Assembly (NCBI RefSeq): GCF_964194155.1 | Contig: NC_135894.1 | Span: 89,280,001-89,344,000, forward strand | Direction of reading: 5' to 3' | Length of the DNA: 64,000 nt | From: Cetorhinus maximus | Lineage: Eukaryota | In this document: piece by piece, positions 1,965 through 60,128 of the stretch | How positions within the stretch are numbered: position 1 is the stretch's first letter | Layout: every line of letters begins with the position of its first letter | Notes under the pieces: generated by a model | What the model was told of the DNA's origin: nothing | Databases searched by the model: none | What the model saw: the letters and a program-made list of their open reading frames with translations, nothing else | Made by a program: the position numbers and the translations under genes

Positions 1965-2595
1965 CGTGATGACATCAACATCCTCGGACCAATCCTCTCC
2001 AGCTGCTTCATTAATGACCATTCTTCCATCATAAGGTCAGAAGTGGGGATGTTCGCTGATGATTGCACAATGTTCAGCACCATTCATGATTGCTCAGATA
2101 CTGAAGCAGTCCATGTCCAAATGCAGCAAGACCTGGACAATATCCAGGCTTGGGCTGATAAGTGGCAAGTAACATTCAGTGCCAGGCAATGACCATCTCC
2201 AACAAGAGAGAATCTAACCATTGCCCCTTGGCGTTCAATGGCATTATCATCACTGAATCCCCCATTATCAACATCCTGGGGGTTACCATTGACCAGAAAC
2301 TGAACTGGACCAGCCATATAAATACTGTGGATACAAGAGCAGGTCAGTGGCTAGGAATCCTGTTGTGAGTAACTCACCTCCTGCCTCCCCAAAGCCTGTC
2401 CACCATCTACAAGGCACAAGTCAGGAGCGTGATGGAATATTCCCCACTTGCCTGGATGAGTGCACCTACACCACATGGACTGCTGCAGTTCAAGAAGGCA
2501 GCTCACCACCAGCTTCTCAAGGGCATCTAGGGATGGGCAATAAATGCTGGGCCAGCCAGCGAAGCCCACATCCCATGAATGAATTTTTTAAAATT
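1965..2595 (+). mobile_element. CR1-group LINE family B, 3' fragment (RT C-terminus and tail)
   Basis: LGPILSSCFIND...VGMFADDCT...AWADKWQVTF; tail GGGCAATAAATGCTGG...CCCACATCCCATGAATGAAT. Confidence 0.9.
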
Positions 2596-3129
2596 ATAAT
2601 ATAATGATGTATTATATGTAAAGAAACTCAACACTGTCATGCCTGTTTCACAGGCATAAGACGATGATAGATTTGGCAGTAGGAAGGCCCAGGCCTGGCA
2701 CTGCTACTTTTAACGGTGAAAGCCTTTGTGTAAGGCGATTTATAAAGGTTAAGCTTAACTTCTTTGTCAGAATGTGATCCCAGAAACACTGTAAAACTTG
2801 GGAAATCTTGCCTGGCCCAGATACGGAACAGATTTGCAAATTGGCAATACCAAGAGATTTAGACTTGTTTAGTCAATGTAAACTGATAAGCCCAATAAAT
2901 AACCACAATCAGAAACTGAAGGCCATAAAAATAAATTGGTAAGAAATTCGGAATGCAATAAAGATAGAATGTGACCTATGCAGTTACTTTTAGCCAGTGG
3001 TCTTAATTATAAAGAATTAAAACATATTGCAGACTAATAAATTTTAAGAAGAACATCTCAAGGAAAGTTCAGTCCACAGTGCACGGAACAGTCATTGTGG
3101 TCCAGTATCCTGAGTAACACTTACAATAT

Positions 3130-3375
3130 GTCAGTTAAGGAATGTGGCAGCCACATTGCACACAGCAAGGTCCGGCAAACAGCAGCGTGAGAAATGACCA
3201 GATAATCTGTTTTTTAGTGATGCCTGTTGATGGATCAGCATTGGCAAGATCACTGAGAAGAACCACGCTATTCTTCTTCAAAAGTGTGATATGGGACCTT
3301 TCACCTGAGAGGGCAGACGGGGCCTCGGTTTAATGCCTCATCTAATGCAAGACGGCACCTCAGACCGTGCTCACT
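3130..3375 (-). mobile_element. Deu-like SINE fragment
   Basis: AATGACCAGATAATCTGTTTTTAGTGATG and CACCTGAGAGGGCAGACGGGGCCTCGGTTTAA are shared with the other copies. Confidence 0.7.
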
Positions 3376-4834
3376 AGCTCCCTCCCTGACTCCCTGTCCT
3401 TTGAGTGAATTAGGTCAGTGAAATGCCTCTCATCCATAATTTCACCAAAATGTCGATCCATGTACAAAAAAAGCGTTTTCCGTTTCTTTTTTTTAAAAAA
3501 CTGGCGCTTTCAACAGGAGAAATTTCAACCTCTACCACGGCCGAGTGAAGAGAAAAGGAACCTTCGTTCAGTTTTAGAGGAAAATTGTTTTCATGGAAAC
3601 TGTTTGGCAAGCCTTTTCGTGTTTGGACAATAGGAAGAGCCAAGTCATTTTCATCATAATGATCTGATGATGTGTTTCGGAGCAATTGACTCCAGAGTGT
3701 CATGTTTTCGTAAAACAAAACAATAAAAGATTTGCCAAGTTTTTTATCCCCCCCCATGAAGACACTTCCCTTCAAAGTGTCCAGCGACCGGAGAATGTAC
3801 CTGACCTTCTCGGAAGCAGACGAGATAAAGAAGACGATTGTCGTGGCAGCAAAATAAAGAGATGTTTATTTGTTTTTTTCATCACCCTTCAAATGCAAAT
3901 GGTAACTCACTGCTGCAGTTTATTAATATTTAACTGCTATTTTTAAAACGTGCAAATCTAATACTTGACAGCTTAAAATGGCATTTGAGTGCAAAAAATA
4001 AACGATTGCAGGAGCTGTTGCTGTCGCCACTAAAAACAAAACAAGTACGACACACAGATTTACAGAGAGCTGTCAGCGAGTGACTTTTCAGAAAGCCCAC
4101 TGGTTTCCAAAAGTCCCCCACAATCGTCGTGCAAGACCATCTGACAACCTTCCGTCACAAGCTCACATCTTCAATTCAGCACGGAAAGGCAATAAGACCC
4201 TCGTAATATTGCGTGTCAAAGAAAGGTCTGCCTGCATCGCCGCGGTATGAAAAACCAGTGAAGTTTCTAGAAAGTGCCAATTTACAGTATCTTCCCTTCT
4301 AATTTATGCTAATTTATTCCTTGGTGCGGATGGGCTTAATGTCCCATTGTAAGGTCTGGGACTGTTAAGCATTTTTCTTTTCTCTCTATTGCTGGCAAGG
4401 TTTTCAAAGAGAGGTAGAGCAAAAACTTTAGTCCCCAGACAATTAAAAGGAGAATATTCCTAAACAGCCCAGTGGAATCTAAAGATTATTTCGCCATTGG
4501 AGAAAGGTTGAATTATTCATAGTGGGCTGCAGGCTGAAGTTAGTTAATTAGGCCTTTCTCACAAATGAGATAACCTTCAGATTTCATTCAGCTCCGCTTG
4601 CGATCCACTTTATTACCTATCAGAAGGACAATTTTATTTAAACTACCAATTACAAATTTCCAACAAAAAAAACCCCCAAGTAAAATATTTAAAGAGTGTG
4701 CGGCTGCTAACCCTGAACCCTTTCTTCACCCACCAGAAAATACAATTAAAAACAAATTCAAATGGTTATTAAGAAATTTCACTGAACATCAAGCGGGAAT
4801 AAAAATTGCCTGACAGGTCGGTCAGCATGCTATG

Positions 4835-5978
4835 GACTCCCTCCCAGAAACATGATAGGGTCCCCCTTGTCCTCACTTATCACCCCACCAGCCTCCGCAT
4901 TCAAAGGATCATCCTCCGCCATTTCCGCCAACTCCAGCATGATGCCACCACCAAACACATCTTCCCCTCACCCCCACCCCCGGCGGCATTCCGCAGGGAT
5001 CGTTCCCTCCGGGACACCTTGGTCCACTCCCCCATCACCCCCAACACCTCAACTCCCTCCCACGGCTCCTTCCCAAGCAACTGCAGAAGGTGCAACACCT
5101 GCCCCTTTACTTCCCCTCTCCTCACCGTCCAAGGGCCCAAACACTTCTTTCAAGTGAAGCAGCATTTCACTTGCACTTCCCTCAATTTAGTCTACTGCAT
5201 TCATTGCTCCCAATGCGGTTTCCTCTACATTGGAGAGGCCAAACGCAGACTGGGTGACCGCTTTGCAGAACACCTGCGGTCTGTCCGCAAGCATTACCCA
5301 GACCTCCCTGTCGCTTGCCATTTCAACACTCCGCCCTGCTCTCATGCCCACATGTCCGTCCTTGGCCTGCTGCAATGTTCCAGTGAAGCTCAATGCAAAC
5401 TGGGGGAACAGCACCTCATCTACCGACTTCCGGACTGAATATTGAGTTCAACAATTTTAGATCATGAACTCTCTCCTCCATCCCCACCCCCTTTCCGATC
5501 CCCCCCTTTTTTTTCCAATAATTTATACAGATTTTTCTTTTCCCACCTATTTCCATTATTTTTAAATGTATTTCCATCCATTGTTTTATCTCTGCCTTTT
5601 AACCTCTCTCGATTCCTTCACCCCATCCCACCCCCACTAGGGCTATCTGTACCTTGCTCGTCCTGCTTTCTACCCTTAATTAGCACATTCCTTAAATAAT
5701 ATCACCACCTTCAACACCTCTTTGTCCTTTTGTCTGTGACATCTTTTGGTTAGCTCCATCTATCACTGGCCCTCTATCCAGCTCTACTTGTCCCACCCCA
5801 CCCTTAAACCAGCTTATATTTCACCTCTCTTCTATTTTTACTTAGTTCTGTTGAAGGGTCATTCGGTCTTGAAACGTTAACTGTGTTCCTCTCTGCAGAT
5901 GCTGCCAGACCTGCTGAGTTTTTCCAGGTATTTTTGTTTTTGTTTTGGATTTCCAGCATCCGCAGTTTTTTGCTTTTA
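4835..5978 (+). mobile_element. Penelope-like retroelement family P1, 5'-truncated (GIY-YIG endonuclease, 3'UTR, hammerhead-like tail)
   Basis: ORF 4806-5438 contains NLVYCIHCSQCGFLYIGEAKRRLGDRFAEHLRSV (GIY-YIG-type) preceded by a CxRCxTC motif. Tail GATGCTGCCAGACCTGCTGAGTTTTTCCAG. Confidence 0.9.
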
Positions 5979-6432: not shown

Positions 6433-8378
6433 ATACAAACATACATACGAATTAGGAGCAGGAGTAGGCCATTTGGCCCCTCGAGCCCGCTCCGCCATTC
6501 AATAAGATCATGGTTGATCTAATTATGGCCTCAACTCCACTTTCCTTCCTACCCCCTATACCCTTTGATACCCTTTTCAATCAAGGATCTACCTATGTCA
6601 GCTTTAAAAATATTCAGTGACCCTGCCTCCACACTCTGGGGAAGAGAGGCCCACCGACTTAGGACCCTTCGAGAGTTCCACTGACTTACAACCTCTCCAT
6701 CTTAAATGTTCTACTTATGGTCTCTCCCACAAGGGGAAACACTCTTTCAGCATCCACCCTATCAAGTCTCCTCAGGATTTTGTATGTTTCAAGAAGATCA
6801 CCTCTCATTCTTCTAAACTCCAATGGATACAGGCCCAACCTGTCCAACCTTTCCTCGTAGGATAACCCCCATTTCAGGAATCAGTCGAGTGAACCTTCTC
6901 TGAACTGCGTCGAATGCAATTATGTCCTTTTGTAAAAAAAGGAGACTAAAACTGTACACAGTACTCCTGATGTGGTCTCACCATTACCTGATACAACTGG
7001 AACAAAACACCTCTATTTTTATATTCCATTTCCCTTGCAATAAACAATAAAATTCCATTTGTCTTCCTTGTCACTTGCTCTACCTGCATACTAACTTCCT
7101 GTGATTCATGCACTAGAGCACCCAGATCCCTCTGTACCGCAGAGTTCTGCGATCTCTTCCCATTTAAATAATATGCTGCTTTTCTATTCTTCCTGCCAAA
7201 GTGAACAAGTTCATATTTTCCTACATTACACTCCACCTGCCAAATCTTTGCCTATCTATATCCCTTTGCAGGCTCCTTATGTCCTCATCACAACTCACCT
7301 TCCTACCTTTCTTTAGTCGTGTGGTAGTACAGAATTTGAGTATTGCTGAAAAAAAGAGAGACTTTTTTTGTCAAAGCTTTTCACCTTGCACTCATCAGGA
7401 CAATTGGCATTTTCTTGTAAATTGTCCTGATGACTGCAAGACGAAAAGCTTTGACAAAAGAAATCTGTTTTTGTCATCAGCAAATTTATACATTTGATCC
7501 TATCATTCAAGTCATTAATATAGATTGTGAATAGTTGAGGTCCCAACACTGATCCCTGTGATACTCCACTTTCTACATCTTGCCAACCCAGAAATGACCC
7601 ATTTATACCTACTCTCTGTTTCCTGTTAGCTAACCAACCCTCTATCCATGCTGATATGCTACCCCTACATCATGAACACTTTGGTGTGGCATCTTGTCAA
7701 ATGCCTTCTGGAAATCTAAGTGTACCACATCCACAAGTTCCCCTTTATCCAAGTTGTTTGCTACTTCCTCAACATGTTCTCATAAATTAGTCAAACATGA
7801 TTTCCTTTCACAAAACCATGCTGATTCCGCCTGATTGCATTGACATTTTCTAAGTGCCCCACTATAACCTCCTTAATAATAGATTCCAACATTTTCCCTA
7901 TGACAGATGTTAGCCTAACCGACTTGTAGCTTCCTGCTTTCTGTCTCCCTCCTTTCTTGAATAGAGGAGCTACATTTGCTATTTTCCAATCTGATGGGAC
8001 CTTTCCAGATTCTAAAGAGTTTTGGAAAATAAAAACCAATGCATCTACTGTTTCCACAGCCACTTCTAATAAGGCCCTAGGATGAAATCCATCATAGCTT
8101 GGGGGCGTGTCAGCTTTTAGTTGTAATAATTTTCTCAGCACTCTTTCCTTGGTGATTGTAATTGTTTTACATTCCTCCATACCCTTCATCTCTTATTTCT
8201 GGGATGTTATTTGTATCCTCTACAGTGAAGGCAGATGCAAAATATCTGTTCAATTCATCCACCATTTCCTTATTTTCCATTTTTAATTCCCCAGAATGAC
8301 TCTGTAGAGGAGCAATGTTCACCTTACTTACTCTTACGCTTTTCCTTTTTAAACGTTTGTAGAGACTCTGACTATCTG
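6433..8378 (-). mobile_element. CR1 LINE family A (HER1-like), 5'-truncated degenerate ORF2
   Basis: ORFs 7791-8189 (VPSDWKIANVAPLFKKGGRQKAG...NQHGFVKG), 7313-7549 (LGPQLFTIYINDL) and 6946-7236 (NVGKYELVHFGRKN); tail GGAGCAGGAGTAGGCCATTTGGCCCCTCGAGCC. Confidence 0.92.
7316..7468. mobile_element. Short Penelope family P2 insert with two inverted minimal hammerhead motifs, nested in CR1
   Basis: 7368-7403(-) and 7422-7457(+) both read TTGTC-CTGATGA-[G/C]TGCAAGRY-GAAA-AGCT-TT-GACAA. The same tail occurs at 23346-23440 and 35110-35165. Confidence 0.8.
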
Positions 8379-8477
8379 AAAAGCTTCAAAGTAATTTAAA
8401 GAAATCAGTGTAAGCTGCTGATGTTTTGTGGAATTGCATGAGGTACATGAGAATTGAGAAGTCGGAACTAAAATCAG

Positions 8478-8551
8478 TGCCCAAACAGGGACTTGAATTC
8501 TAGATCCTCAGATTGAGAGTCTAATGCTCTTACCAACTGAGCTATCTGGAA
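8478..8551 (-). pseudogene. tRNA-Lys(UUU)-derived pseudogene with anticodon altered to CTC
   Basis: Minus strand TTCCAGATAGCTCAGTTGGTAAGAGCATTAGACTCTCAATCTGAGGATCTAGAATTCAAGTCCCTGTTTGGGCA aligns to vertebrate tRNA-Lys-TTT (GCCCGGATAGCTCAGTCGGTAGAGCATCAGACTTTTAATCTGAGGGTCCAGGGTTCAAGTCCCTGTTCGGGCG). D stem intact; T stem and B box damaged. Confidence 0.85.
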
Positions 8552-8559
8552 TAACCTGG

Positions 8560-8745
8560 ATCCTTTCATTAACATCACTAAAACAGACCAGCAGGTCATT
8601 ACCTCATTACTGTTTGTGGGAGCTGACGTGCACAAACTGGCTGCTGTGTTTACCAAATCTCTACAGTGACCAAACTTCAAATGTACTTCACTGGCTGTAA
8701 AGTCATTTGGAAGACGGTGAAAGGTGCTATATCAATGCGAGTCTT
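8560..8745 (+). mobile_element. Deu-like SINE, 3' half
   Basis: AACATCACTAAAACAG...TGTTTGTGGGAGCT...GAAAGGTGCTATATCAATGCGAGTC tail. Confidence 0.75.
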
Positions 8746-8819: not shown

Positions 8820-9900
8820 CGGGGATGGTATCATAGTGGTTATGTTACTGGACTAGTAATCCAGAAACCTGGACTAATGATCAACCACAGCAGCTGGGGA
8901 ATTTTAATTGAATAAATCTGGAATAAAAAGCTAGGATCAGTAAAGGCGATCATGAAACTACTTAATTGCTGTAAAAAACCCATATGGTTTATGATTATCC
9001 TTTAGTCCTTACCCAATCTGACTCACAGCAGCTATGTTTGACTCTTAACTGCCCTCTGAAATGGCCTAGTAATCCACTCAGTTGTATCAAACTCCTACAA
9101 GAAAGTTGAATAAGGGTGAAACCAGATAGACCACCCAGCCAGGACCTCAGCACAGACATAACAAAGGCACATTTGGCCCAGTTGACCCAAATGTTATTAA
9201 CATCTGGGAACTTGTGCCAGAATTGGGAGAGCTGTCCATAGACTATTCAAACAGCAGCCTGACATATCATACTCACAGAAGCATAACTTATAGCCATTGA
9301 CCAGTACAGCTACAACACTGGCAACGACATGGCAAAGTGGAAAATTGTCCAGGTATATCCTGTCCACTAATAGCAAGACAAATCCAGTCTGGCCAATTAC
9401 CGTCCTGGCAATCATCAACAAAGTTATGGAAGGTGTCATCAACAGTGCTATCAAGTAGCACTTGCTCACCAATAACTTGCTCTCTGATGTTCACTTTGGG
9501 TTCCAGCATGGTAACTCGATTCCAAACTTCAATAAAACCTGATCCAAACTTGTACAAAAGAGCTGAATTTAAGAGGTGTTGGGAGAGTGACTGCCCTTGA
9601 TATCAAGGCAGCATTTGACCAAGTGTGGCATCAAGGAGCCCTGGCAAAACTGGATTCAACGAGAACCAGGTGGAAAACTCTCCGCTGGTTGTAGTCATAC
9701 CTAGCACAGAGGAAGACGGTTGTTGTTGATCCCCCAGGGTAGTGTCCTAGACCCAACCATCTTCAGCTGCTTCATCAATAACCTTCCTCCCATCATAAGG
9801 TCAGAAGTGGGAATAGTCGCTGATGATTGCACAATGTTCAGCGCCAATCCCAATCCTCAGATAACAAAGCAGCCCATGTCTACATGTCACAAGACTTGCC
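8820..9900 (+). mobile_element. CR1-group LINE family B with tRNA-like 5' head, internally deleted
   Basis: Head GGGGATGGTATCATAGTGGTTATGTTACTGGACTAGTAATCCAG, then an APE N-terminus (NIW.LVPELGELS.RL.KQQPDI..LTE-like, ~9198-9280), then RT pieces (PQGSVLDPTIFSCFINN...ADDCT). Confidence 0.85.
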
Positions 9901-10419
9901 CAGAATCCGGCTCAACCCACCTCTGGGCTTTCACTGAAGGGAATGAACCTCAATCATGGTAACTGGCATTTTCTCTTCACAGACGCCGGCTGATTTATTG
10001 TATAATTCCAGCATTTTTAATTCCAGAGTATCTTTTGCCTTTTTCCTAAACTCAGGGTAAATAGTTGCAACACAAACACTGAGCACCCCAGAACTCCTGG
10101 TGCTATGGAGGGTGCTTCGACTGGTGCATTGGCAGGAGGGTTGGTGGGGGTGGCGGGGTTGTGGGAGAGAAGGTGGGACTTGGAAAGGAACTTCATCCAG
10201 CAAATCCATTTGAATGAAGGGACTATTCCGCTCAGTTACTCCCTCAAAAATGCTCACGTTCCATGTGCACTATAAATCCGCCCAAGCTATAAACCTGTAT
10301 CGACTGTTTCCATTTTGTGAAGTGCTCTGGGGTGATTCTTTTCTTTCCCATTCAATGCCTGTACAAATGCAAACTGCGATTGTGGTTGTGTACCTCTTTA
10401 TCATGTCAGGGTACCTAGC

Positions 10420-25099: not shown

Positions 25100-25620
25100 T
25101 AAAAAGTTCTTGTCAGCATTTGGGTGATGCCATCCCTAGTTGCCCCGAAAATGCGATGGGTGGACAGTATCCTTCAACTGCTGCAAACCATTTAGGTGAT
25201 GGGGTTCACAAGATAGCTCTGGGTAGGAAATGCCAGCGTTTTAACCCAACAATGATGAAGGAACGGCAATATATGTCCAAGTTAGGATGAATTGTTACTT
25301 GATAGGGAACTTGGAGATGGGTCATGTTCTCGTGCACCTGATACCCTAGATGATAGAGATCACAGGTTTGGAAAGTCTTGCTGAAAAGGCCTCAGAAAGG
25401 TGCTACAGTGCTTCCTGTAGGTAGCATGCACTGCAATCAAAATGCCCTGGAGGGCGAAGGGGTGTGGATAATGAATCCTGGGACACTAATCAAGAAAACT
25501 GCTCTGTCCTGCATGATGCCAAGCTTCTTGACTAATTTAATGGTCACACACATCCAGGCAAGTGTGAGTGTTCCAACGCAATCAGGACTGAGAATTGTAC
25601 ATGCTGGAGGGGCTTTAAGA
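25100..25620 (-). mobile_element. Degenerate CR1-group family B 3' fragment
   Basis: CAGCATTTG...CCATCCCTAGTTGCCC and TGAAGGAACGGCAATATATGTCCAAGTTAGGATG. Confidence 0.7.
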
Positions 25621-26185: not shown

Positions 26186-27619
26186 TCTCCTTGATTTTCT
26201 AGAAAACCTTCTAAATTGCAGCCCATTGGCATTTCGACAAGCTGTGCCATTGCACATGAAAGACTGAGCAACATAACTACAACACTACAGTGATGTTAAC
26301 AAGTTGGGCAAGAGAGTGGAGAACATTCATTATATAATTACGCTGATATGGTTTAGGCAGTCAATGCCATTATTGGCAAGTGATGCAGTACTTAAGTTAA
26401 ATGAATTCAAGACCAAATAATTTACTGAAAAAAATTGCCTTTGACGTGTGAAGAATGTGAAGACGGGTAACAAATTGCCGGCCATTACCGGATTGGCAAT
26501 TCAGAGCCAATGATTGGATTGGCCGAGGTGGGGGAGGAGGGGTGTGGGGGTGGGATGGTGTTTAACCCAAGATAAAAATCCTTTATTTGTATGAGCAACA
26601 TGAGGGTCCTGAGATCACAGTTGGTGTTGCACAACTTGCATTCGGTGCCATCTCAGGCATGGTTGGTCCTAGTGAGAGGCATTGGTTGGGGTTGGGGGGG
26701 GTGGGGGGGTGGGGGGGGGGTGGGGGGGGGTGCGAGGGGGGTGGGGGTGGTGGTGCGGCGGAGGGGGGTTAATTTTGAACTTTGACCTTTGGTTGGAAAG
26801 CTAGCAGAGTGGATTACATGCCCTGCCTTTAGTGAACCTGTCAGATTTTTGTTCCATTCATTTCAATAGAATGAAAATCCAACGTCAATGGGCGAGCGAC
26901 CTGGTCCCTTGTTAGCCACCAAATGGCAAAGCTGATAACTACCTCACCGTGAGTGGGGATAGTGATTGAAGGTTGCTCAGATTAACACGAAAACCACCAT
27001 GTTCATTGCCTCATGAAGACACTAACAGGAGAAGATCTAATCCATGCAGCCTGTTACACACACAACTATGTCACCTTACATATCACAATAGGGGCTGCAG
27101 GAAGGCAGTTCACCACCACCTTTTCAAGGGCAATTAGGGATGGGTAATAAATGCTGGCCTAGCCAGTGACACCCACATCCCGTAAATGAACACAAGAAAA
27201 ATTTTTAAAAATACATATACTCTCCATCCCACCCAAAAACATTGAGGAAAATTTCGGTATTTGTGTGACAAGTCACTCCACATGCATTAACTTGCAGAGA
27301 GTTGCAAGATTGTTCATATTGTGCTATGCCAAACCCAACAATGAATGGAAAAGTATGGAAAAGTTGGGCAGCACTGTAGACTCATGATGGACTTGCTGGC
27401 AGAACATATGATGCCACATTAGATGTAATCTCTTTGCCCAGGCTTCCTCCAGTCAGCCATTTCAAGTGTAAAAATAATGTAAAACAAGCCTTAGCTTTTA
27501 TACTGCATGTATGAGGCAGGTGGCTGCCTACAGCTATTAGTGTTTACTGTTTGTCCTACACCGTCTCTAGACAGCTACCTGCATATTTATATTGCACACA
27601 GGTATAGAGCTCCTCTTAC

Positions 27620-28050
27620 TGGTATCCAGGACAAAGCAGCCCACTTGATTGGCATCCCGTCCACCACCTTAACCAGTCATTCCCTCCACCACCAACGCAC
27701 AGTGTGTACCATCTACAAGGAGCGCTGCAGCAACTCATCAAGGCTTATTTGACAGCACCTTCCAAGCACGCGACCTCTATCGCCTAGAAGGACAATGGCA
27801 GCAGATGCGTGGGAACACCACCACCTGCAAGTTCCCCCCCCCCACAAACCATTCACCACCCTGACTTGGAAATATATCACCGTCACTGGGTCAAAATTCT
27901 GGAACTGCCTATCCAGTAGCACTATGAGTGTACTTACAACATATGGACTAAAGCAGTTCAAGAAGGCGGTTCACCATCATCGTGAAGGGATGGGCAACAA
28001 ATATTGGCCTAGCCATTGATGCTCACATCCCAGGAACAAATAAAAAAAAG
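27620..28050 (+). mobile_element. CR1-group family B 3' fragment (short additional tail at ~27090-27200)
   Basis: IQDKAAHLIG...SLHHQRTV...TLTWKYI..TGSKFWN; family B tail. Confidence 0.88.
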
Positions 28051-31649: not shown

Positions 31650-33865
31650 ACATACGAACATATGAACATATGAAGTAGACCATTTGGCCCCTCGAGCCTG
31701 TTCCACCATTCAATAAGATCACAGCTGATCTGATTGTAACCTCAAGCCCATATTCCCACCTACCTCCAATAGACTTTCACCCCCTTGGCTTATCAAGAAT
31801 CTATCTACTTCTACCTTAAAAATATTCAAAGATTCTGCATCCACTGTCTTTTGAGGAAGAGACTGCCAAAAAATCACAACCCTCTGAGGAAAAAAACTTC
31901 TCCTCATCCCTGTTTAAATGTGTGGCCCCTTGTTTTCAAACTGTGACCCTAGTTCTAGATTTTCCCACAACAGGAAACATCCTCTCCACATGCACCCTGT
32001 CAAGACCCCTCAGGATCTTATATGTTTCAATCAAATCACCTCTTACTCTTCTGAACTCCAGCAGATACAAGCCTAACCTGTCCAACTTTTCCTCATATGA
32101 CAACCCACCCATTCCAGGTATTAGTCTAGTAAACCTTCTGTGAACTGCTTCTAATGCATTTACATCCTTCCTTAAATAAGGAGACCAATACTGTACACAG
32201 TGCTCTAGGTGTGGTCTCACCAATGCTCTGGATAACTGAAGCATAATTTCCTAACTTTTGTATTCAATTCCCCTCGCAATAAATGATAACATTCTATTAG
32301 CTTTCCTAATTAGTTGCTGAAGCTGCATACTAACATTTAGCGATTCATGCACTAGGGCACCCAGATCCCTTTGCATCTCAAGGCTCTAAAAATCTCTCGT
32401 CATTTAAATAATATGTTTCTTTTTTATTCTTCCTGCCAAAATGGACAATTCCACATTTTCCCACATTATGCTCCATTTGCCAGATCTTTGCCCACTTACT
32501 TAACCTATCCATATCCCTTTGTAGCCTCCTTATGTCCTCTTCACAATTTACTTTCCTACCTAGCTTTGAGCCATCAGCAAATTTAGCAACCAACCATACC
32601 TTTGGTCCCTTCATCCAAGTCATTTATATAAGTTGTGAAAAGTTGAGGCCCCAGCACTACTCCCTGTGGCACATTACTATTTATATCTTACCAACAAGAA
32701 AATTGTCCAATTATGCCTACTCTCTGTTTCATGTTAGCTAGCCAATCTTCAATCCATGCCAATATGTTACCTCCACACCATGAGCTTTTATTTTCCACAA
32801 TAACCTTTGATGTTGAACCTTATCAAACGTCTTCTGGAAGTTTAAGTACAGTACATCCACCCCTTTATCCACAGCACATGTTATTTCTTCAAAGAACTCC
32901 AATAAATTGTATTTTTCATTCATTCATGGGATGTTGGCATCACTGACTATGCCAGCATTTATTGTCACCTCTGAGAAGGTGGTGGTGAGATGCCTTCTTG
33001 AACTGCTGCAGGCCATGTGATGTAGGTACACGCACAGTATTGTTAGGGAGTGAGTTCCAGGATTTTGACCTAGCAACAGTGAAGGAACGGCGATATATTT
33101 CCAAGTCAGGATGGTGAGTGGCTTGGAGGGGAACTTCCAGGTGGTGGTGTTCCCACATATCTGATGCCCTGGTCTTCTAGATGGTAGTGGTAGTGGTCGT
33201 GGGTTTGGAAGGTGCTGCCTAAGGAGCCTTGGTGAGTTTCTGCAGAGCATCTTGTTGATGGTACATACTTTTGCTACTGTGCGTTGGTGGTGGAGGGAGT
33301 GATTGTTTGTGGATGGGGTGCCAATCAAGCAGGCTGTTTTGTCCTGGCTGGTGTCGAGCTTCTTGAGTGTTATTGGAGCTGCATTAATCCAGGCAAGGGG
33401 AGAGCATTCTATCACACTTCTGACTTGATGACTCCTGACTTGATTTCCCTTTCACAAAACCATGCTGACTCTGCCAACGATTTCGAATTTTTCTAAGTGT
33501 GCTGCTAAAACATCTTTAATAATAGCTTTTATCATTTTTCCTATGACAGATGTCAAGGTAACTGGCCTGTAGTTTCCTGCTTTCTGTCTCCTTCCTTTTT
33601 CGAATAAAGGGGTTCCATTCACTATTTTCCAATCTGATGGAATTTAGGGAACCTCTGGAAAATTAAAACCAATGCATCAACTATCTCACTAGCCACTTTT
33701 TTTAAGACTCTAAGATGAAGTCCATCAGGACCTGGGGACTTATCAGCCTGTAGCTCCAACAATTTGCTCAGTACCATTTCCCTGGTGATTGTAATATTCT
33801 TGAGTTCCTCCCTCCCTTCCATTTCCTGATTTACAGCAATTTCTGGGATGTTGCTTCTATCCTCC
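31650..33865 (-). mobile_element. CR1 family A ORF2 remnant, interrupted by a family B insertion
   Basis: ALVRPHLEHCVQYWSPYLRKD...; AKFADGSKLG; KSPGPDGLHLRVLK. Confidence 0.92.
32913..33428 (-). mobile_element. CR1-group family B 3' fragment nested in family A
   Basis: AAPITLKKLDTSQDKTACLIG...TILTWKYIAVPS; tail TTCATTCATGGGATG on the plus strand. Confidence 0.9.
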
Positions 33866-36484: not shown

Positions 36485-36900
36485 TTCTTTATTCTTTCAT
36501 CAACGTGGGCATCGCTGGCAAGGCCAGCATTTGTTGCCCATTCCTAATTACCCTTAAATGGAGTGGCTTGCTAGGCCATTTCAGAGAGCAGTTAAGAGTC
36601 AACAAGATTGCTGTGGGTCTGGAGTTACATGTAGGCCAGACCAGGTAAGAACGGAAGATTTCCTTCCCTAAAGGACATTAGAGAACCTGGTGGCTTTTTT
36701 AAAAAAAACAATTGATGATAGTTTCATGATCACCATTACCGGGGCTAGCTTTCATTACCAGATTTTATTAATTGAATTTATTATTTTAGTTAAATTCCAT
36801 CAGCTGTTGTGGTGGGATTTGAACTCATGGTCCCTGGGTATTAGCCTGGGCCTCTGGATTACTAGTCCAGTAACATTGCCACCATGCCACCATCTCCCCC
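36485..36900 (-). mobile_element. tRNA-headed SINE = family B head plus family B 3' tail
   Basis: A-box-like TGGCATGGTGG, CTGGA-CTAGTAA-TCCAG stem-loop, B box GAGTTCAAATCC. The body is joined at GCAAGCCACTC to the AAGGGTAATTAGG...AAATGCTGGCC tail. Confidence 0.85.
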
Positions 36901-41174: not shown

Positions 41175-41545
41175 ACAATACCATCTACAAAATGCTCTGC
41201 AGGAATTCACCATGGCTCCTTCGACAGCACCTTCCAAACCCACGACCACTACCATCTAGAAGGATAAGGGCAGCAGGTAGATGGAAACACCACCACCTGG
41301 AAGTTCCCTTCCAAATCACTCACCATCCTGACTTGGAAATATATCTGTGTTCCTTCACTGTCGCTGGGTCAAAATCCTGGAACTCCCTTCTTAACAGCAA
41401 TGCAGGTGCACCTACACCTGCACAGGGACTGTAGCAGTTCAAGAAGACAGCTCAGCACCATCTTCTCAAGCGCAACTAGGGATGAGCAATAAATGCTGGC
41501 CCAGCCAGTGAAGCCCACATCTCTTGAATGAATAAAAAAAAACAC
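41175..41545 (+). mobile_element. CR1-group family B 3' fragment
   Basis: TIYKMLCRNSPWLLRQHLPNPRPLP; family B tail. Confidence 0.9.
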
Positions 41546-42179: not shown

Positions 42180-43285
42180 TTCTGTAAATTGATAGAAAAT
42201 TGGCTAGCTAACAGGGAGCAGAGAGTTGGCGTAAATGGGTTTTTTTCTGGTTGGCAGGATGTGACGAGCAGTGTGCCACGGGGCTCAGTGCTGGGACCTC
42301 AACTATTTACAATTTATATAAATGACTTGGATGAAGAGACCAAAGGAATGTTGGCTAAATTTGCTGATGACACAAGGCTAGGTAGGAAAGTAAACTGTGA
42401 AGAGGGCATAAGGAGGCTACAAAGGGACATAGATAGGTTAAGTGAGTGGGCAAAGATCTGGCAAATGGAGTATAATGTGGGAAAATGTGAAATCATTCAT
42501 TTTGGCAGGAAGAATAAAAAAGAAGCTTATTATCTAAATGGTGAGAGATTGCAGAGCTCTGAGATTCAGAGGGATCTGGGTGTCCTAGTGCATGAAGCAC
42601 AAAATGTTGGTATGCAGGTATAGCAGATAATTAGGAAAGCTAATGGAATGTTATAATTTATTGTGAGGGGAATTGATTACAAAAGTAGGGAGGTTTTGCA
42701 TTAGTTGTACAGGGCATTGGTGAGACCACATCTGGAGTATTGTGTACAGTACTGATCTTCTTATTTAAAGAAAGATGTAAATGCGTTAGAAGCAGTTCAG
42801 AGAAGGTTTACTAGAGCAATACTAGGAATGGACAGGTTGTCTTCTGAGGAAAGGTTGGACAGGCTAGTTTTGTTTCCACTGGAATTTAGAAGAGTAAGAG
42901 GTGACTTAATTGAAACCTTTAAGATCCTGAGGGGTCTTGACAGGGTGGATGTGAAGAGCATGTTTCCTCTTGTGGGAGAATCTAGAACGAGGGGTCACTG
43001 TTTAAAAATAAGGGGTCGCTCATTTAAGACAGAGATGAGGAGGAATTATTTCTCTCAGAAGGTTGTGAGTCTTTGGAACTCTCTTCCTCAAAAGGTGGTG
43101 GAAGCCAAATCTTTGAGTATTTTTAAAGTAGATTTAGATAGATACTTGATTAACAAGGAGGTGAAAGGTTATTGGGGGTGGGCAGGAACGTGGGGCTGAG
43201 GTTACATTCAGATCAGCCATGATCCTATTGAATATCGGAGCAGGTTCGACAGCAGGTTTGACTCCTGCTTCTAATTTGTTCATAT
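42180..43285 (+). mobile_element. CR1 family A RT/C-terminal fragment
   Basis: ORF 42132-42623 VTSSVPRGSVLGPQLFTIYINDL...AKFADDTRLG; ORF 42828-43199. Confidence 0.95.
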
Positions 43286-43439: not shown

Positions 43440-46400
43440 ATTTTTTTATTCATTCATGGGATGTGGGCGTCGCTGGCTGGGCGAGCATTTATTGCCCATC
43501 CCTAATTGCCCTTGAGAACGTGGTAGTGAGCTGCCTTCTAGAACCGCTGCAGTCCATGTGGTATAGGTATACCCACAGTGCTGTTAGGGAGGGGTGTTCC
43601 AGGATTATCACCCAGCGACAATGAAGAAATGACAATATAGTTTCAAGTCAGAACAGTGAATGGCTAAGAGGGGAACTTTCAGGTGGTGGTGTTCCCATGT
43701 GTCTGCTGCCCTTGTCTTTCTATGTGGTAGTGGTCATGGTTTTAGAAGAAAAATCTGTGCTGTTTTTCTGGTGTTGTCCAAGGAGCCTTGGTGAGTTCCC
43801 GCAGTGCATCTAATAGATGGTACACACTGCTGCCACTGTGCATCGGTGATGGAGGGAGTAAATGTTTGTGTGTGGGATGCAATAGAGAGGGTGGCTTTGA
43901 CCTGCATGGTGTCAAGCTTCTTAAGTGCTGTTGGAGCTGTACTCATCCAGATAAGTGAAGAGTATTCCATAGCACTCTTGGCTTTTGCCTTGTAGTTGGT
44001 GGACAGGATTTGGGAAGTCAGGGGTTGAATCACTCTCCGCAGGATTCCTAGCCTCTGACCTGCTCTTGTAGGCACAGTATTTATCTGGCTAGTCCAGTTC
44101 AGTTCCTGATCAATGGTAACCAGCGGGGTGTTGATAGTGGTGGATTCAGTGATGGTAATGCCATTGAATGTCCAGGGGCGATGGTTGGATTCTCTCTTGC
44201 TGGAGATGGTCATTGCCTGGCACTTGTGTGGTGCAAATATTACTTTCCACTTGTCAGCCCAAGCCTGGATATTGCTGCATTTGGACGTGGACTGCTTTAG
44301 TATCTGAGGAGTCACGAATTGTGCTGAACATTGTGCAATCAACAGTGAACATCCCTACTTTTGACCTTATGATGGAAGGAAGGTCATTGATGAAGCAGCT
44401 TAAGATGGTTGGGCCTAGGACACTACCCTGAGGAATTCCTGCAGTGACGTCCTGGAACTGAGATGATTGACCTCCAACAGCGGAGAATTTTCCCCTTATT
44501 CCCATTTACTTCAGTTTTGCTTGATGCCACACTTGGTCAAATGCTGCCTTGATGTCAAAGGCAGTCTCTCTCACCTCACCTCCGGAGTTCAGCTCTTTTG
44601 TCCACATTTGAACCAAGGCTGTAATCAGATCAGGAGCTGAGTGGCCCTGGTGAAACCCAAACTGACTGTTAGTGAGCAGGTTATTGCTAAGCAAGTGCCA
44701 CTTGATAGCACTGTTGATGACTCCTTTCTCACTTTACCGATGATGGAGAGTAGATTGATGGGGTGGTAATTGGCCGGGTTGGATTTGTCCTGCTTTTTGT
44801 GTACAGGGCACAATTTTCCACATAGCCAGGTAGATGCCAGTGTTGTGGCTGTACTGGAACAGTTTTGCTAGGGGCACAGCAAGTTCTGGGGCACAAGTCT
44901 TCAGTACTATTGTCAGAATATTGTCAGGGCCCATAGTCTTTGCAGTGTCCAGTACCTTCAGCCATTTCTTGATATCACGTGGAGTGAATTGAATTGGCTT
45001 AAGTCTGGCATCTATGGCGCTGGGGTCCTCCAGAGGAGGCCAAGATGGATCATCCACTTGGCACTTCTGGCTGAAGATTGTTGCAAATGCTTCAGCCTTA
45101 TCTTTTGCACTGATGTGTTGGGCTCCCCCATCATTGAGGAAGGGAATATTCCTGGAGCTTCCTCCTCCAGTGAGTTGTTTAATTGTCCATCACCTTTCAT
45201 GACTGGAGGTAGCATGACTGCAGAGTTTAGCTCTGTCTATCACTTGCTCCTTCTGCTTTTTGGCATGCAAGTAGTCCTGTGTTGTAGCTTCACCAGGTCG
45301 ACACCTCATTTTTAGGTATGCCTGGTGCTGCTCCTGGCATCCCCTCCTGCACTCTTCATTGAACCAGGGTTGGTCCCCTGGCTTGGTAATAATGGTAGAG
45401 TGGGGGATATGCCAAGCCATGAGGTTACAGATTGTGGTTGAATACAATTCTGCTGCTGCTGATGGCCCATTGTGCCTCATTGTTACCCAGTCTTGAGTTG
45501 CTACATCTGTTCGAAACCTATTCCATTTAACACAGTGGTAGTGCCACACAACACAATGGAGGGTATCCTCAATGTGAAGACAGGGCTTAGTCTGCACAAT
45601 GGCTATGTGGTGGTCACTCCTATCGAAACTGTCATGGACAGATGCACCTGCGACAAGCAGGTTGTTGAGGATGAGGTCGAGTATGCTTTTCATTCTTGTT
45701 AGTTCCGTCACCACCTATGTCCTTTAGGACTCAGCCAGCTCAGTCTGTGGTGGAGCTACCAAGCCACTCTTGGTGATAGACATTGAAGTCCCCCATCCAG
45801 AGTACATTCTGCATCCCTACCACCCTTAGTGCTTCCTCCAAGTGATGTTCAACAAGAAGGAGAACTGATTCATCAGCCGAGGGAGGGCGGTATGTGGTAA
45901 TCAGCAGACTTCATGGGGTCCAGAGTCGATGTTGAGGACTTCCAGGGCAACTTGCTCCCAGCTGTATATCACTGTGCTGCCACCTCTGCCCAGTCTGTAC
46001 TCAATCGTCCTGGCCCGATGTACCACCCACTCTACCATTACCACCAAACCAGGGTTCAATGAAGAGTGCAGGAAGGCATGTCAGGAGCAGCACCAAGCAT
46101 ACTTAAAAATGAGGTGTCTGCTGCTGCTTGACTAGTCTGTTCCTAGGAGAACTTTGCAGGGTCGATAAGGCTGAGTTTGCCATTGTCGTTTCCGGTGCCT
46201 AGGTCGTTGCCAGGTGGTCCATCCGGTTCCGTTCCTTTTAGACTTAGCAGATTATACGACTGAGTGGCTTGCTCAGCCATTTCATTTAAGAGTTATCCAC
46301 ATTGCTGTGGGTCTGGAGTCACATGTAGGCCAGGCCAGGTAAGGACGGCAGATTTCCTTCCCTAAAGGACATCAGCGAACCAGATGATTTTCATGACAAT

Positions 46401-46558
46401 TGACAATGGTTGTCATTAGACAACCATTTCAATTTTTGAATTTTTCAATTCCAGGTTTATATTGAATTCAAATTTCACCATCTGCTGTGGTCCCCAGGGC
46501 ATTACCCTGGGTCTCTGGATTACTAATCCAGCGATGACGCCACTACGCCACCACCTCC
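43440..46558 (-). mobile_element. Near full-length CR1-group family B LINE: tRNA-like head, single degenerate APE-RT ORF, tail
   Basis: Head at ~46558-46260; RLVKQQ at ~46140; QNVLWMGDFN at ~45780-45810; LDLILNN...SDHH; KTMGPDNI...ELAVPLAKLFQ; QFGFHQGHS..D; DIKAAFDQVWH; GIPQGSVLGP; tail at ~43450. Many frameshifts. Confidence 0.92.
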
Positions 46559-47399: not shown

Positions 47400-47975
47400 T
47401 TATTTCATTCTTGAGATATGGGCATCACCAGCAAGGGCAGCATTTACTTACATTCCTTAATGCCCTGAGAGGACAGTGGTGGGACTTCTTGCTTGGCCAC
47501 TTCAGAAGGCAGTAAAGAATCAACCATATTAAGTGTAGGATCGGAATCATATCTAGGCCAGACCAGGTAAGGATGGCAGGACACAGCAGCCTGCTTGATT
47601 GATGCCCCATCCACCACCTTAGACATTCACTCCCTCCATCACCAAAGCACAGTGGAAGCAGTGTGCACCATCTATATGCTGCACTGCAGCAACTCACCAA
47701 GGATCCTTCGACAACACCTTCCAAACCCGCCACCGCTACCACCTGCAAGGGCAAGGACAGCATATTCATGGGAACACTGCCACCTGCAAGTTGGCCTCCG
47801 ACCCACACACCATCCTAACTTGTGGCTATATTGCATGTCCTTACTGCCACTGGGTCAAGAACTCCCTTCCTAACAGCATTGTGGGTGTGCCAATACTACA
47901 TGAACTGCAGCTGTTCAAGAAGGTAGCTCACCACCAACAATACCCACATCCCCTGAATTACTAAATATAAAAAAA
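47400..47975. mobile_element. Family B SINE fragment (-, ~47400-47580) abutting a family B LINE 3' fragment (+, ~47580-47975)
   Basis: GGCCAGACCAGGTAAGGATGGCAG followed by GACACAGCAGCCTGCTTGATTG...SLHHQSTV. Confidence 0.75.
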
Positions 47976-48779: not shown

Positions 48780-49915
48780 TTTTTTTTTAATTTGTTCGTG
48801 GGATGTGGTTGCTGCTGGCAAGGCCAGTATTTGTTTCACAACCCTAATTGCTCTTGAGAAGATGATGTCGAGCCACCTTCTGGGGCTATTCTAGTCCATA
48901 TAGTGTAGGTACGCCCACAGTGCTGTTAGGAAGGGAGTCTGCAAAGGGATGCAGATAGGTTTAGTGAGTGAACAAAAATTTGGCAGGTGGAGTATAATGT
49001 GGGAAAATGTGAGCTTGTCCACTTTGGCAGGAAGAATGGAAAAGCAGAATCTTATTTAAATGGAGACTGCAGAATGCAGAGGGATCCGGATGTCCTCGTA
49101 CATGAATCACAACAGCTTAGCATGCAGGTACAGCAAGTAATTAGGAAGCAAATGGAGTGTTGGTCTTTATTGCCCGAGGGGGGGATGGAGCATAAAAGTA
49201 GAGAGGTGTTGCTACAACTGTACAGGACACTGGTGAGACTGCACCTAGAGCATTGTGTACGGTTTTGGTCTCCTTTCTTGAGGAGGAACATACTTGCATC
49301 GGAGGCAATTCAGAGAAGGTTCACTAGGCTGATTCCTGGGATGAAGGGGTTGTTTTATGATGAAAGGTTGAGCTGGTATTGGAGTTTAGAAGACTGAGCA
49401 GTGATCTTATTGAAGCATATAAGTTTCTGAGAGGTCTTGATAGGATAGATGCTGAGATGTTTCCTCTCAAGGGGGAATCTAGAACTCGGGAGCAGCTTTT
49501 AAGATTAAGGGTCTCCTGTTTAAGACTGGGATGAGGAGGAATTTCTTCTCTCAGAAGCTTATTAGTCTTTGGAATTCTCTTCCACAGACGGCAGTGGAGG
49601 CTGTGTCATTGAATATATTCAAGGCTGAGTTGAGAGTGATTTTTGATTGGCAAGAGAGTCAAATGTTATGGGGGACAGGCAGGAAAGTAGAGTTAAGGCC
49701 ACAATCAGATCGGCTACAATCTTATTGAATTGTGGAGCAGACCCACGTACCCCCATCCTCTTATATTCTTATACTCTTATTTTGACCCAGTGTTTGGGAT
49801 GGAACAGCTATATGGCTCCAAGTCAGGATGCTGTGTGACCTGGAGGGGAACTTGCAGCTGGCTGTGTTCTCATGTGTCTGCTACCCGTGTCCTTCCAGGT
49901 GGCAGAGGTTTGCTG
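48780..49915. mobile_element. Family B fragment (-) interrupted by CR1 family A (+, ~48940-49780)
   Basis: Family B tail at 48785-48938 resumes at ~49800 (CCAAGTCAGGATG). The insert encodes YNVGKCELVHFGRKN...LVRLHLEHCV. Confidence 0.85.
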
Positions 49916-56829: not shown

Positions 56830-57150
56830 TCGCAGCTTCCTCCAAAACCTCCAAACCCACAACCACAGCCGCCTAGAAGAACAAGGGCAGCAGGCACATA
56901 GGAACACCACCCGTGGAAGTCCCCCTCCAAGCCACACACCATCCTGACTTGGAAATATATCGCCGTTCCTTTGCTGTCGCTGGGTCAAAATCCTGGAACT
57001 CCATCCCTAACAGCACTGTGGGTGTACCTACACCACAGGGACTGCAGCGGTTCAAGAATGAGGCTCACCACCACCTTCTCAGGGGTAATTAGGGATGGGC
57101 AATAAATGCTGGACTAGCCAGCAATGGCCACATCACATTTAAAAAAAAAT
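56830..57150 (+). mobile_element. CR1-group family B 3' fragment
   Basis: CCATCCTGACTTGGAAATATATCGCCGTTCCTT...GGGCAATAAATGCTGG. Confidence 0.9.
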
Positions 57151-58852: not shown

Positions 58853-60128
58853 TGAAGGTAAAGCGCCTAATCAGAAGATGAGATGCTGTTCTTCCAGCTT
58901 GTGTTGGGCTTCACTGGAACAAGGACAGAAATATGAGCATGAGAGCAAGATGATGAATTGAAATGGCAAGCGACCAGAGGGTCAGTGTCATGCTTGCGGA
59001 CTGAGTGTCTGCAAAGCGGTCATCCAACCTGTGTTTTACCTCCCTAATGTAGAGACCACTTATGAGCAGTGAACACACTGAATTGAAAGAAATACACATA
59101 AATCACTACTTGACCTGAAAGGAGTATTTGGGGCCTTGGATGGTGAGGAGAGAGGAGGTAAAAGGGCAGCTGTTACACGTCCTGGCATTGCATGGGATGG
59201 CGCCATGAGAAGGGGACAAAGTGTTGGAGGTGATTGAGGAGTGAAATTTTGAAAGGGGTGCAGGAGCAGAAAGACCTGGGTGTATATGTGCACAGATCAT
59301 TGAAGGTGTAGGACAGGTGGAGAGAGCAGTTAATAAAGCATACAGTATCCTGAGCTTTATTAACAGGGGCATAGAGTACAAGAGCAGGGAGGTTATGCTG
59401 AATTTATATAAGACACTTGTTTCTGGAATATTGTGTACAGTTCTGGGCGCCATATTATAGGAAAGATGTGAACACATTGGAGAGAGTGCAGAAGAGGTTT
59501 ACAAGAATGGTTCCAGGGATGAGAAACTTCAGCAATAAGGATAGACTGGAGAGGTTGGGACTGTTCTCCTTGGAGAGGAGAAGGCTAAGAGGAGATTTGA
59601 TAGAGATGTTCAAAATAATGAGGTGGCTGGACAGAGTAGTGAAAGGATCAAGAATGAGAGGGCACAGATTTAAATTGATTTGCAAAAGAAGCAAATGTTG
59701 TGTGAGAAAGAAATTTTTCACACCACAAGTGGTTCGGGTCTGGACTGCACTGCCTGGAAATGTGGTGGAGGCAGGTTCAGTTGAGGCATACAAGAGGGCA
59801 TTAGGTTATTATTTGAATAGAAACAATGTGCAGGGGTATGAGGAAAAGGCAGGGCAATGGCACTAGGTCATAATGCTCATTTGGAGAGCTGGTGTAGACA
59901 CGATGGGCCAAAGGGCCTCCTTCTGTGCTGTTAAAATTTCTGTGATTCTGGGTGTCACAAAGGAAACGGTCCCTTCGGAACGCTGGCAGGAGAGGGGAGG
60001 AATAGATGTGTTTGGTGGTGGCATCATGCTGGAGGTGGCGGAAATGGCAGAGGATGATCCTTTGAACGTGGAGGCTGGTGGGGTGGAAAGTGAGGACAAG
60101 GGGAATGTAATCGCAGTTCTGGAGTGGC
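58853..60128 (-). mobile_element. Penelope P1 fragment split by a CR1 insertion (59244-59950, +)
   Basis: YIPLVLTFHPTSLHVQRIILCHFRHLQHDATTKH (59951-60128) and CNSCPFTSSLLTIQGPK / GLYIREVKHRLDDRFA (58853-59243). The CR1 insert encodes LEYCVQFWAPYYRKD. Confidence 0.9.

Follow-up and report, generated by a model that had tools for sequence, protein, structure and literature searches.

A tRNA-Ser-headed, single-frame CR1-Zenon retrotransposon of Cetorhinus maximus, likely transcribed by RNA polymerase III and likely the source of its own SINEs

This report concerns a family of long interspersed nuclear elements (LINEs) of the CR1 group and its short partners (short interspersed nuclear elements, SINEs), as found in a 64,000-nt stretch of the Cetorhinus maximus genome (assembly GCF_964194155.1, contig NC_135894.1, positions 89,280,001 to 89,344,000 of the forward strand), called here the window. 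A preliminary description of this DNA, made from the letters alone, had singled out two LINE copies and one SINE sharing the same 5' unit. These three elements were recovered where it had placed them, and the common unit, about 300 nt long, could be aligned across all three. It is made up of a tRNA-like head and a non-coding body; in the LINE, one open reading frame (ORF) for an endonuclease (APE) and a reverse transcriptase (RT) follows. The features are given one per line below, where family positions refer to the 3,289-nt majority sequence of the family; its lineages and junction classes are set out further on.

43440..46558, minus strand: near full-length Zenon LINE copy, decayed, with a lineage A head (family positions 3-435 and 591-3289, at 80-84% identity to the majority)
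46482..46558, minus strand: tRNA-Ser-derived head of this copy, delimited by alignment; the T-arm with the B box is deleted here (17 nt)
46540..46550, minus strand: A box TGGCGTAGTGG of this copy, read from the sequence; the family majority has its A box at the same place (position 11)
46515..46531, minus strand: anticodon-arm stem-loop CTGGA-TTAGTAA-TCCAG of this copy, read from the sequence and seen in the ARAGORN cloverleaf of the majority head at lowered threshold
46493..46511, minus strand: long variable-arm hairpin CCCAGGG/CCCTGGG of this copy, a class II tRNA feature
46259..46481, minus strand: conserved non-coding body, common to LINE and SINEs and present in the published shark and ray consensi
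43502..46255, minus strand: remains of the one APE-RT frame (969 codons long in the majority sequence; Pfam matches on other copies)
46008..46118, plus strand: inverted segment from inside the element itself (family positions 1230-1352), within the APE region and specific to this copy
43440..43512, minus strand: 3' tail and poly(A) end, the part common to the SINEs
8820..9912, plus strand: older Zenon copy whose head clusters with lineage B (family positions 16-536 and 1825-2491)
36485..36899, minus strand: head-plus-tail SINE of junction class B, with a lineage B head and an intact B box (family positions 1-311 and 3218-3289)
47419..47579, minus strand: second head-plus-tail SINE of the same family, 5'-truncated and more diverged

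The LINE copy at 46.5 kb is disrupted by many small deletions, stops and frameshifts, and most of family positions 436-590 are gone. Its frame is ordered as a basic leader, the endonuclease, the RT and a C-terminus that ends within the tail shared with the SINEs. The RLVKQQ codons, at 46138-46121, lie about 120 bp past the end of the head unit (near 46259), a distance of about 165 bp in intact copies. The inverted piece at 46008-46118 possibly arose by a template switch or a repair event; a weaker inverted similarity between the same two parts of the element is visible in many copies. The 8.8-kb copy retains the head and the start of the APE region, jumps from family position ~536 to ~1825 in the RT part, and stops at ~2491 with no tail; its stem-loop lies at 8848-8864. 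An A-box-like motif and the RLVKQQ peptide had been attributed to both LINE copies. This holds for the 46.5-kb copy, whereas the A box of the 8.8-kb copy is degenerate (TATCATAGTGG) and its peptide reads RLFKQQ. The SINE is built as described, its head (36899-36561) being fused just past GCAAGCCACTC to a 71-bp LINE tail (36555-36485).

Searching the same genome with the head gave 6,019 candidates; scores were computed for 40 of them, and the top 30 were examined. Among these 30, the head joins the ORF leader at the identical base in 17 (a count that takes in the window copy and one copy stopping at the APE start) and joins the tail in the other 13. In a set of 40 longer loci, 25 proved to be head-to-tail elements, mostly of 3.1-3.3 kb and with A-rich ends, whose upstream flanks disagree until agreement rises at the G run opening the head. 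The copies are 89.4-94.5% identical to their 3,289-nt majority, which begins with a tRNA-Ser-like head containing A and B boxes and continues with a body of about 220 nt, one APE-RT frame of 969 codons and a poly(A) end. No second frame longer than 106 codons was found on the sense strand of this majority, and Pfam Exo_endo_phos and RVT_1 match open stretches of other copies.

The same picture was obtained with an arbitrary sample of 58 stretches of 10 kb (580,000 bases). It contains 6 LINEs with head and APE, 18 head-plus-tail SINEs, 39 LINE fragments, 14 tails and 8 matches that are head-only or otherwise degraded, the head-only ones being mostly degraded SINEs. In all six head-bearing LINEs the head-to-APE junction falls at the identical position; two APE starts have no head, both being truncated inside the ORF start, and no different sequence was seen upstream of an APE start anywhere in the sample. 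Family matches cover 52,931 of the sampled bases (~9%). Simple scaling of the counts would give some 40,000 LINEs bearing the head and 120,000 SINEs, figures with a wide error that apply to the large chromosomes only. Fragments of the ORF are also present in predicted proteins of Heterodontus, Pristiophorus and Rhincodon. At 1835040, 1913769 and 1995565 of one contig (G000 C35, loci L137-L139), Zenon 5' matches of identical score lie ~80 kb apart, which suggests a tandem segmental duplication. These data confirm the fixed tRNA head followed by a single APE-RT frame as a real, family-wide architecture. The proposal of a single-ORF CR1-group LINE with a tRNA-derived head and no room for an ORF1 between head and APE is thereby borne out, since no ORF1 stands upstream in the 25 full-length copies or in the sample; the counting of the two kinds of junction that had been suggested gives the 6 and 18 above, the head-to-APE junction having a fixed position that refutes chance insertion.

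By its sequence, this element is the elasmobranch CR1-Zenon, for which a consensus has already been published (PMC13343379). In the first 400 nt, compared by eye, the white shark consensus CarCar_Zenon-1 equals the family majority nearly letter for letter, and the lengths are 3,288 and 3,289 nt. According to the available text of that source, elasmobranchs, coelacanth and hagfish all have Zenon, which invariably lacks ORF1 and ends in a poly(A) tail that no other CR1-group element has; the single APE-RT ORF, the lack of ORF1 and the A-rich ends of the 25 full-length copies agree with this. The absence of ORF1 had been regarded as unusual, a view that does not stand, as CR1-Zenon 'universally lacked ORF1' (PMC13343379). 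In a quick RT tree of 82 rows, which held no named Zenon reference, the element and a whale shark protein fall into a clade of invertebrate-type proteins (99% SH-aLRT), and the canonical CR1 control of the shark falls outside it. The RT region of the element is ~26-27% identical to that of the genome's own CR1. A canonical vertebrate CR1 was therefore rejected, on the missing ORF1, this low identity and the separate clade.

The tRNA-like head opens all seven published elasmobranch Zenon consensi, from five species, as judged by eye over the first 400 nt of those in the PMC13343379 supplement: CarCar_Zenon-1 (white shark), RhiTyp_Zenon-1 (whale shark), ScyCan_Zenon-1 (catshark), HypSab_Zenon-1 (Atlantic stingray) and SquAca_Zenon-1 to -3 (dogfish). 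Elsewhere the head varies among the five species, but the A and B boxes are kept at the exact 5' end in all of them, the B box of the stingray consensus being one base short. The three hagfish and coelacanth consensi have a different 5' start and contain runs of four or more T within the 400 nt compared. A motif (GGGCGGATGAG ... GGCCATC) found twice in the 5' untranslated region (UTR) of L266, an invertebrate-type metagenomic element of the Zenon-like clade, at ~390-480, occurs once in the 5' region of the hagfish EptBur_Zenon-2 (PMC13343379 supplement) and is possibly a conserved RNA element of headless Zenons.

Aligned from the 5' end, the majority head shares 60 of 81 positions with the tRNA-Ser(AGA) genes of this genome, with a score of 71 where the best shuffles reached 47-53. 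The long variable arm is retained, and ARAGORN at lowered threshold folds the head into a cloverleaf whose loop now reads AGT. The LINE majority has its A box at +11 and, at +75, the B box GGTTCGAATCC, the element starting about 10 nt ahead of the A box as tRNA genes do; both boxes fit the A and B box motifs given in the accessible part of PMC10886601. At default settings ARAGORN reports no tRNA at the window heads. It likewise reports none in the 45 loci scanned out of the 80 metagenomic LINE loci used as controls below, a blank that says little because the shark head is also missed at default. An Rfam scan of one head gave sub-threshold matches only (tRNA 14.8 bits, E 3.7) and no ribozyme family, which leaves an HDV-like ribozyme in the body unsupported. 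Just behind the head, at family position ~115, an AATAAA is present in the majority and in the main published consensi of 4 of 5 species, and is altered near 46460 in the window copy. Polyadenylation-type signals so close to a transcript start are often weak, but this one would sit awkwardly in an RNA polymerase (Pol) II transcript.

The B box is indeed missing from both window LINE copies, by separate deletions of 17 and 21 nt. The contrast with the SINE that had been drawn from this does not extend to the family and arose because two decayed copies were compared. Among heads not picked by a query devoid of the B box, it is absent in 4 of 41 LINE heads (37 keep it) and 3 of 79 SINE heads, about the rate of deletion elsewhere in the head. 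An initial excess (12 of 22 LINE and 6 of 10 SINE heads) was an artefact of the B-box-less window query, and B-box loss as a LINE trait was dropped. The different transcription modes that had been suggested for LINE and SINE thus lose their ground: the LINE itself looks built for the polymerase of the SINE.

Reading of the whole element by Pol III requires a sense strand free of runs of at least four T (T4), and runs of three (T3) are inefficient Pol III terminators. The sense strand of the majority contains no T4 and six T3, where its base composition would predict 4.3 (P=0.013) and 21.4 (P=9e-5). Its A, C and G runs match expectation, and the antisense strand carries 15 T4. In the ORF, four T3 are found against 12.6+/-2.5 in 2,000 synonymous-codon shuffles, of which 0/2000 were as low, and phenylalanine is encoded 14 times by TTC and 4 times by TTT. 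The counts are unchanged without CpG correction and in a second set of 21 copies. The canonical CR1 ORF of the same genome, 801 codons long in a majority built from 20 copies, contains 13 T4, and its 37 T3 compare with 37.4 expected. From the 80 metagenomic LINE loci, 66 gave an N-free ORF of at least 300 codons; all 66 carry T4 runs (2.6-17 per kb), and their lowest observed/expected T3 ratio is 0.69, against ~0.22 in the element. The pattern is seen in 0 of these 67 control LINE ORFs. L266 has 20 T4 runs, and its 5' region contains no B box.

None of the majorities of the four SINE junction classes contains a T4. The five lineage-B LINE copies have one to three T4 runs each, with one position common to two copies. 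In 38 dead copies, transversions creating a T4 occur at 0.0139 and those creating a T3 at 0.0102, for a background of 0.0119; since T4-creating transversions proceed at the background rate, a mutation bias does not explain the gap. The poverty in T runs, with T3 as its strongest signal, fits the pattern expected of Pol III transcription, and these sequence features together suggest that the Zenon LINE is likely transcribed by Pol III along its full 3.3 kb.

The manner of translation is less straightforward. No AUG stands in frame until codon 284, beyond the endonuclease, so that initiation must be by a non-AUG codon, by frameshifting or by re-initiation, all of which are possible on the sequence. 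Eleven AUGs precede the endonuclease and none opens the long frame; that frame begins with an arginine-rich leader, like several relatives. One out-of-frame AUG, at position 348, opens a frame of ~35 codons overlapping the start of the APE, and is kept in 5 of 5 lineage-B copies and, by eye, in 6 of 7 published consensi over the part compared.

The relationship between LINE and SINE was investigated by comparing 152 heads (63 LINE, 89 SINE) over a common 288 nt, clustered with k=2. The SINEs recur in four junction classes, A (292/3217), B (315/3216), D (315/3213) and C (~317/3202), with gaps of ~0-1 nt in most copies and class majorities of 365-399 nt, plus one-off junctions. The clusters follow lineage rather than element type. 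Lineage A comprises 59 LINEs with 31 class-A, 5 class-C, 6 class-D, 1 class-B and 6 unclassified SINEs; lineage B comprises 4 LINEs, including the 8.8-kb window copy, with 37 class-B, 1 class-D and 2 unclassified SINEs, the window SINE being of class B. Seen by class, 37 of 38 class-B SINEs belong to lineage B, whereas 31 of 31 class A, 5 of 5 class C and 6 of 7 class D belong to lineage A. The correspondence reaches the other end of the element, the tail mark of class B being present in 3 of 3 lineage-B LINE tails seen. Between the majority of class-A SINEs and that of lineage-A LINEs, identity is 97.6%. Class-B SINEs are 89.9% identical to their own majority and class A 92.8%, and the longest junction, C, occurs with an A head. 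A search directed at lineage-B LINEs recovered mostly lineage A, with clear B heads in 5 of 21.

One of the one-off junctions, 349/3143 (locus L224, 6760-7246), keeps more LINE sequence on both sides, which indicates that the LINE does yield head-to-tail products. The short element has the makeup of a SINE2, with a tRNA head carrying A and B boxes (B box in 76 of 79), a short non-coding sequence, a tail shared with a LINE and a dispersed distribution; like a SIDE, it is composed solely of the 5' and 3' ends of its partner LINE. A SIDE of the Persaeus type was rejected for it, as such an element has no tRNA homology and no Pol III promoter. No SINE joining the Zenon head to a foreign tail was found among the 89 classified copies, for which the classifier required a Zenon tail. 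The favoured and likely explanation, judged from these sequences, is a repeated internal deletion of the LINE, producing SINEs at no fewer than four junctions. The preliminary description had left the direction open, a SINE spawned by internal deletion of the LINE or the reverse; the lineage-matched heads and tails favor the former.

On the whole, the sequence evidence makes it rather probable that this is a tRNA-Ser-headed, single-ORF Zenon likely read by Pol III over 3.3 kb, whose middle was likely deleted several times to give SINEs. The full proposal would stand at about even chances: an autonomous, coding Zenon transcribed by Pol III from a captured tRNA-Ser promoter, free of T runs since before the shark-ray split, translated independently of a cap and of an in-frame AUG, and shedding SINEs by single deletions. 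The observed starting point is a fixed 5' end formed by the head (A box at +11, B box at +75) and followed by one APE-RT frame. An ancestral Zenon would have acquired this head before sharks and rays separated, through a template switch onto a tRNA or a tRNA-derived SINE that replaced an earlier 5' UTR. The observed lack of T4 and scarcity of T3 would then reflect selection against Pol III terminators in the source elements. The protein would be made from a non-AUG start, or by frameshifting or re-initiation from the out-of-frame AUG, with a predicted cap-independent entry. From the known biology of the family, the RT would bind the 3' tail and insert the element by target-primed reverse transcription. 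Any deletion keeping head and tail would finally yield a complete promoter-plus-tail SINE, as both LINE lineages presumably did.

Several points weigh against this proposal. An uncapped RNA of 3.3 kb, with 11 upstream AUGs and no in-frame start, would still need to be translated. The search for an intact APE-RT ORF that had been recommended gave no fully open copy among 88 protein matches in this genome, and the published counts of intact Zenon copies are 0 of 2313 in white shark, 1 of 1419 in whale shark and 3 of 612 in Atlantic stingray (PMC13343379). The absence of T4 from the ORF is weak alone, with 2.0 expected in the codon shuffles (P=0.09). The strong signal comes from T3, itself an inefficient terminator, and a first-order Markov model expects 12.5 T3 for the 6 found, a smaller deficit than that obtained by composition. 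The controls are richer in T (24-36%, against 20% here), only one DNA control (L266) falls within the Zenon-like clade, and the T-run test was picked after the head had been seen. T4-creating C>T changes in the dead copies are below background (0.018 vs 0.047, 4 events at 6 sites). Lineage B rests on five recovered LINE copies, with no reliable B majority. Lastly, the SINE junctions are nested within ~25 nt, and serial deletion with head and tail exchange in one SINE line could produce this arrangement.

Other explanations must be weighed against the same data. The LINE could be transcribed by Pol II, the head being a captured 5' UTR that acts as a Pol II promoter, serves as a landing pad for TFIIIC or is inert, with Pol III restricted to the short derivatives; the poverty in T runs would then come from composition, avoidance of U-rich processing signals or RT slippage. 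Pol II is the rule for non-LTR elements as stated in the accessible part of PMC10886601, a capped RNA would solve the translation problem, and the lack of T4 is not significant against codon shuffles in a sequence where TT is under-represented generally (ratio 0.71). This explanation nevertheless has to accommodate a pattern shared by none of the 67 control LINEs, a start about 10 nt ahead of the A box as in a tRNA gene, and boxes persisting at the exact 5' end of the five species' consensi where other parts of the head differ, and we consider it a serious but doubtful alternative. It is also unlikely, and slightly more so, that the SINE came first. In that case a tRNA-derived SINE with a Zenon tail gave head and body to the LINE by template switching, after which one SINE lineage lost small pieces in succession and repeatedly swapped heads and tails with the LINE; either polymerase would fit. 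The nesting of classes C, D, B and A agrees with such a series, shuffling of SINE modules is well documented (PMC5786205, in the sections available), and the body is untraced to any Zenon 5' UTR, the 5' ends of L266, hagfish and coelacanth being different. The longest class, C, nevertheless carries the younger A-type head and the shorter class B the older one, so that a serial lineage needs exchange of both head and tail; the foreign-tail SINE that might be expected is missing from the 89 copies (all classified by their Zenon tail), and the 349-to-3143 deletion at L224 shows the LINE making such products itself.

A chance origin, by which SINEs happen to lie beside 5'-truncated LINEs or an ORF1 is hidden further upstream, has a negligible probability. 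Only the high repeat density of the genome speaks for it; it was ruled out by a base-exact junction in dozens of copies and by unrelated upstream flanks, and no SINE tail separates head from ORF and the 5' end is common to five species.

The rest of the window is also rich in repeats. Ten further Zenon fragments or 5'-truncated pieces lie at 1981-2584, 25130-25616, 27098-27190, 27625-28047, 32912-33427, 41179-41539, 47577-47936, 48784-48938, 49779-49909 and 56850-57134. Fragments of the canonical CR1 LINE, a separate family whose T-run content is ordinary and which served as the control above, occupy 6534-8379, 31752-33864, 42192-43172, 48936-49632 and 59234-59860. A degenerate tRNA-Glu(CTC) called by ARAGORN at 8477-8551 (minus strand) adjoins a repeat at 8560-8745 and could represent a pseudogene or belong to another SINE as its head. 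At 4803-5435 (plus strand), a 211-codon open stretch inside a repeat gives a translation that may correspond to the C-terminal part of Penelope-like elements, judging from its resemblance.

The standard division of retrotransposons holds LINEs to be Pol II transcripts and SINEs to be short Pol III transcripts. A coding Pol III element of 3.3 kb, if true, breaks this division: Zenon would be a LINE that is simultaneously a 3.3-kb SINE, Pol III would be able to make a translated retrotransposon RNA in an animal, and the conserved 220-nt body would point to a compact cap-independent initiation element. A one-step route to the birth of SINEs would also be at hand, and with ~9% of the sampled DNA matched, the family has shaped shark genomes. 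Should Pol II be the polymerase instead, a modest but real annotation remains, that of a tRNA-headed Zenon with SIDE/SINE partners.

The closest known system is the elasmobranch Zenon of PMC13343379, which is the same family, with the same length, lack of ORF1 and poly(A) tail. The element is thus already catalogued as a consensus, but its head is not described there: the term 'tRNA' occurs 0 times in the available text and supplement, which mention neither a partner SINE nor the depletion in T runs. No description of a tRNA-headed or Pol III-transcribed Zenon was found in the open-licence literature, Repbase and Dfam lying outside this search; the head-plus-tail SINE may be catalogued in either database. 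The shark SINEs already described, HE1 (V-SINE), SacSINE1 (Deu-SINE) and CmiSINE (CORE-SINE), are characterised by a V, Deu or CORE body and a tail of HER1 or L2 type; their partner LINEs (HER1, CR1-4_DR-like and L2-2_CM) are not described as Zenon (PMC3747384, PMC5499810).

Further comparisons rest on the portions available of the sources cited. RTE-1_DAn and elements related to it (PMC5786205) are likewise autonomous LINEs containing a tRNA-like sequence, but RTE-1_DAn belongs to the RTE clade, unlike the CR1-group element studied here, and is compared from the description of that sequence only. Bov-tA, SINE2-1_ACar and AfroSINE (PMC5786205, PMC4494074) also combine a tRNA head with 5' and 3' parts of a LINE; in these bipartite SINEs, seen in the RTE and Vingi clades only, the head was added to a non-autonomous deletion product, whereas here an autonomous CR1-group element bears it. 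Cassandra, Helenus and Ajax, the TRIMp3 elements of PMC10886601, similarly have a Pol III promoter derived from a small RNA outside the SINE class; unlike Zenon, they are long terminal repeat (LTR) elements of <1.3 kb that are non-coding and non-autonomous. The nearest parallel to the SINEs is Persaeus, a SIDE of lepidopteran Zenon (PMC6740152), which is likewise composed of the Zenon 5' and 3' ends, arose by repeated internal deletion and clusters with its own LINE. Persaeus shows no homology to tRNA and lacks a Pol III promoter, whereas in the shark family the LINE's own 5' end is the tRNA head, and the deletion product is for this reason structurally a SINE2. The single ORF and the partners formed by internal deletion are therefore already known for Zenon from these sources, whereas the tRNA head on an autonomous Zenon, the depletion in T runs and the sorting of SINE parts with LINE lineages are apparently new.

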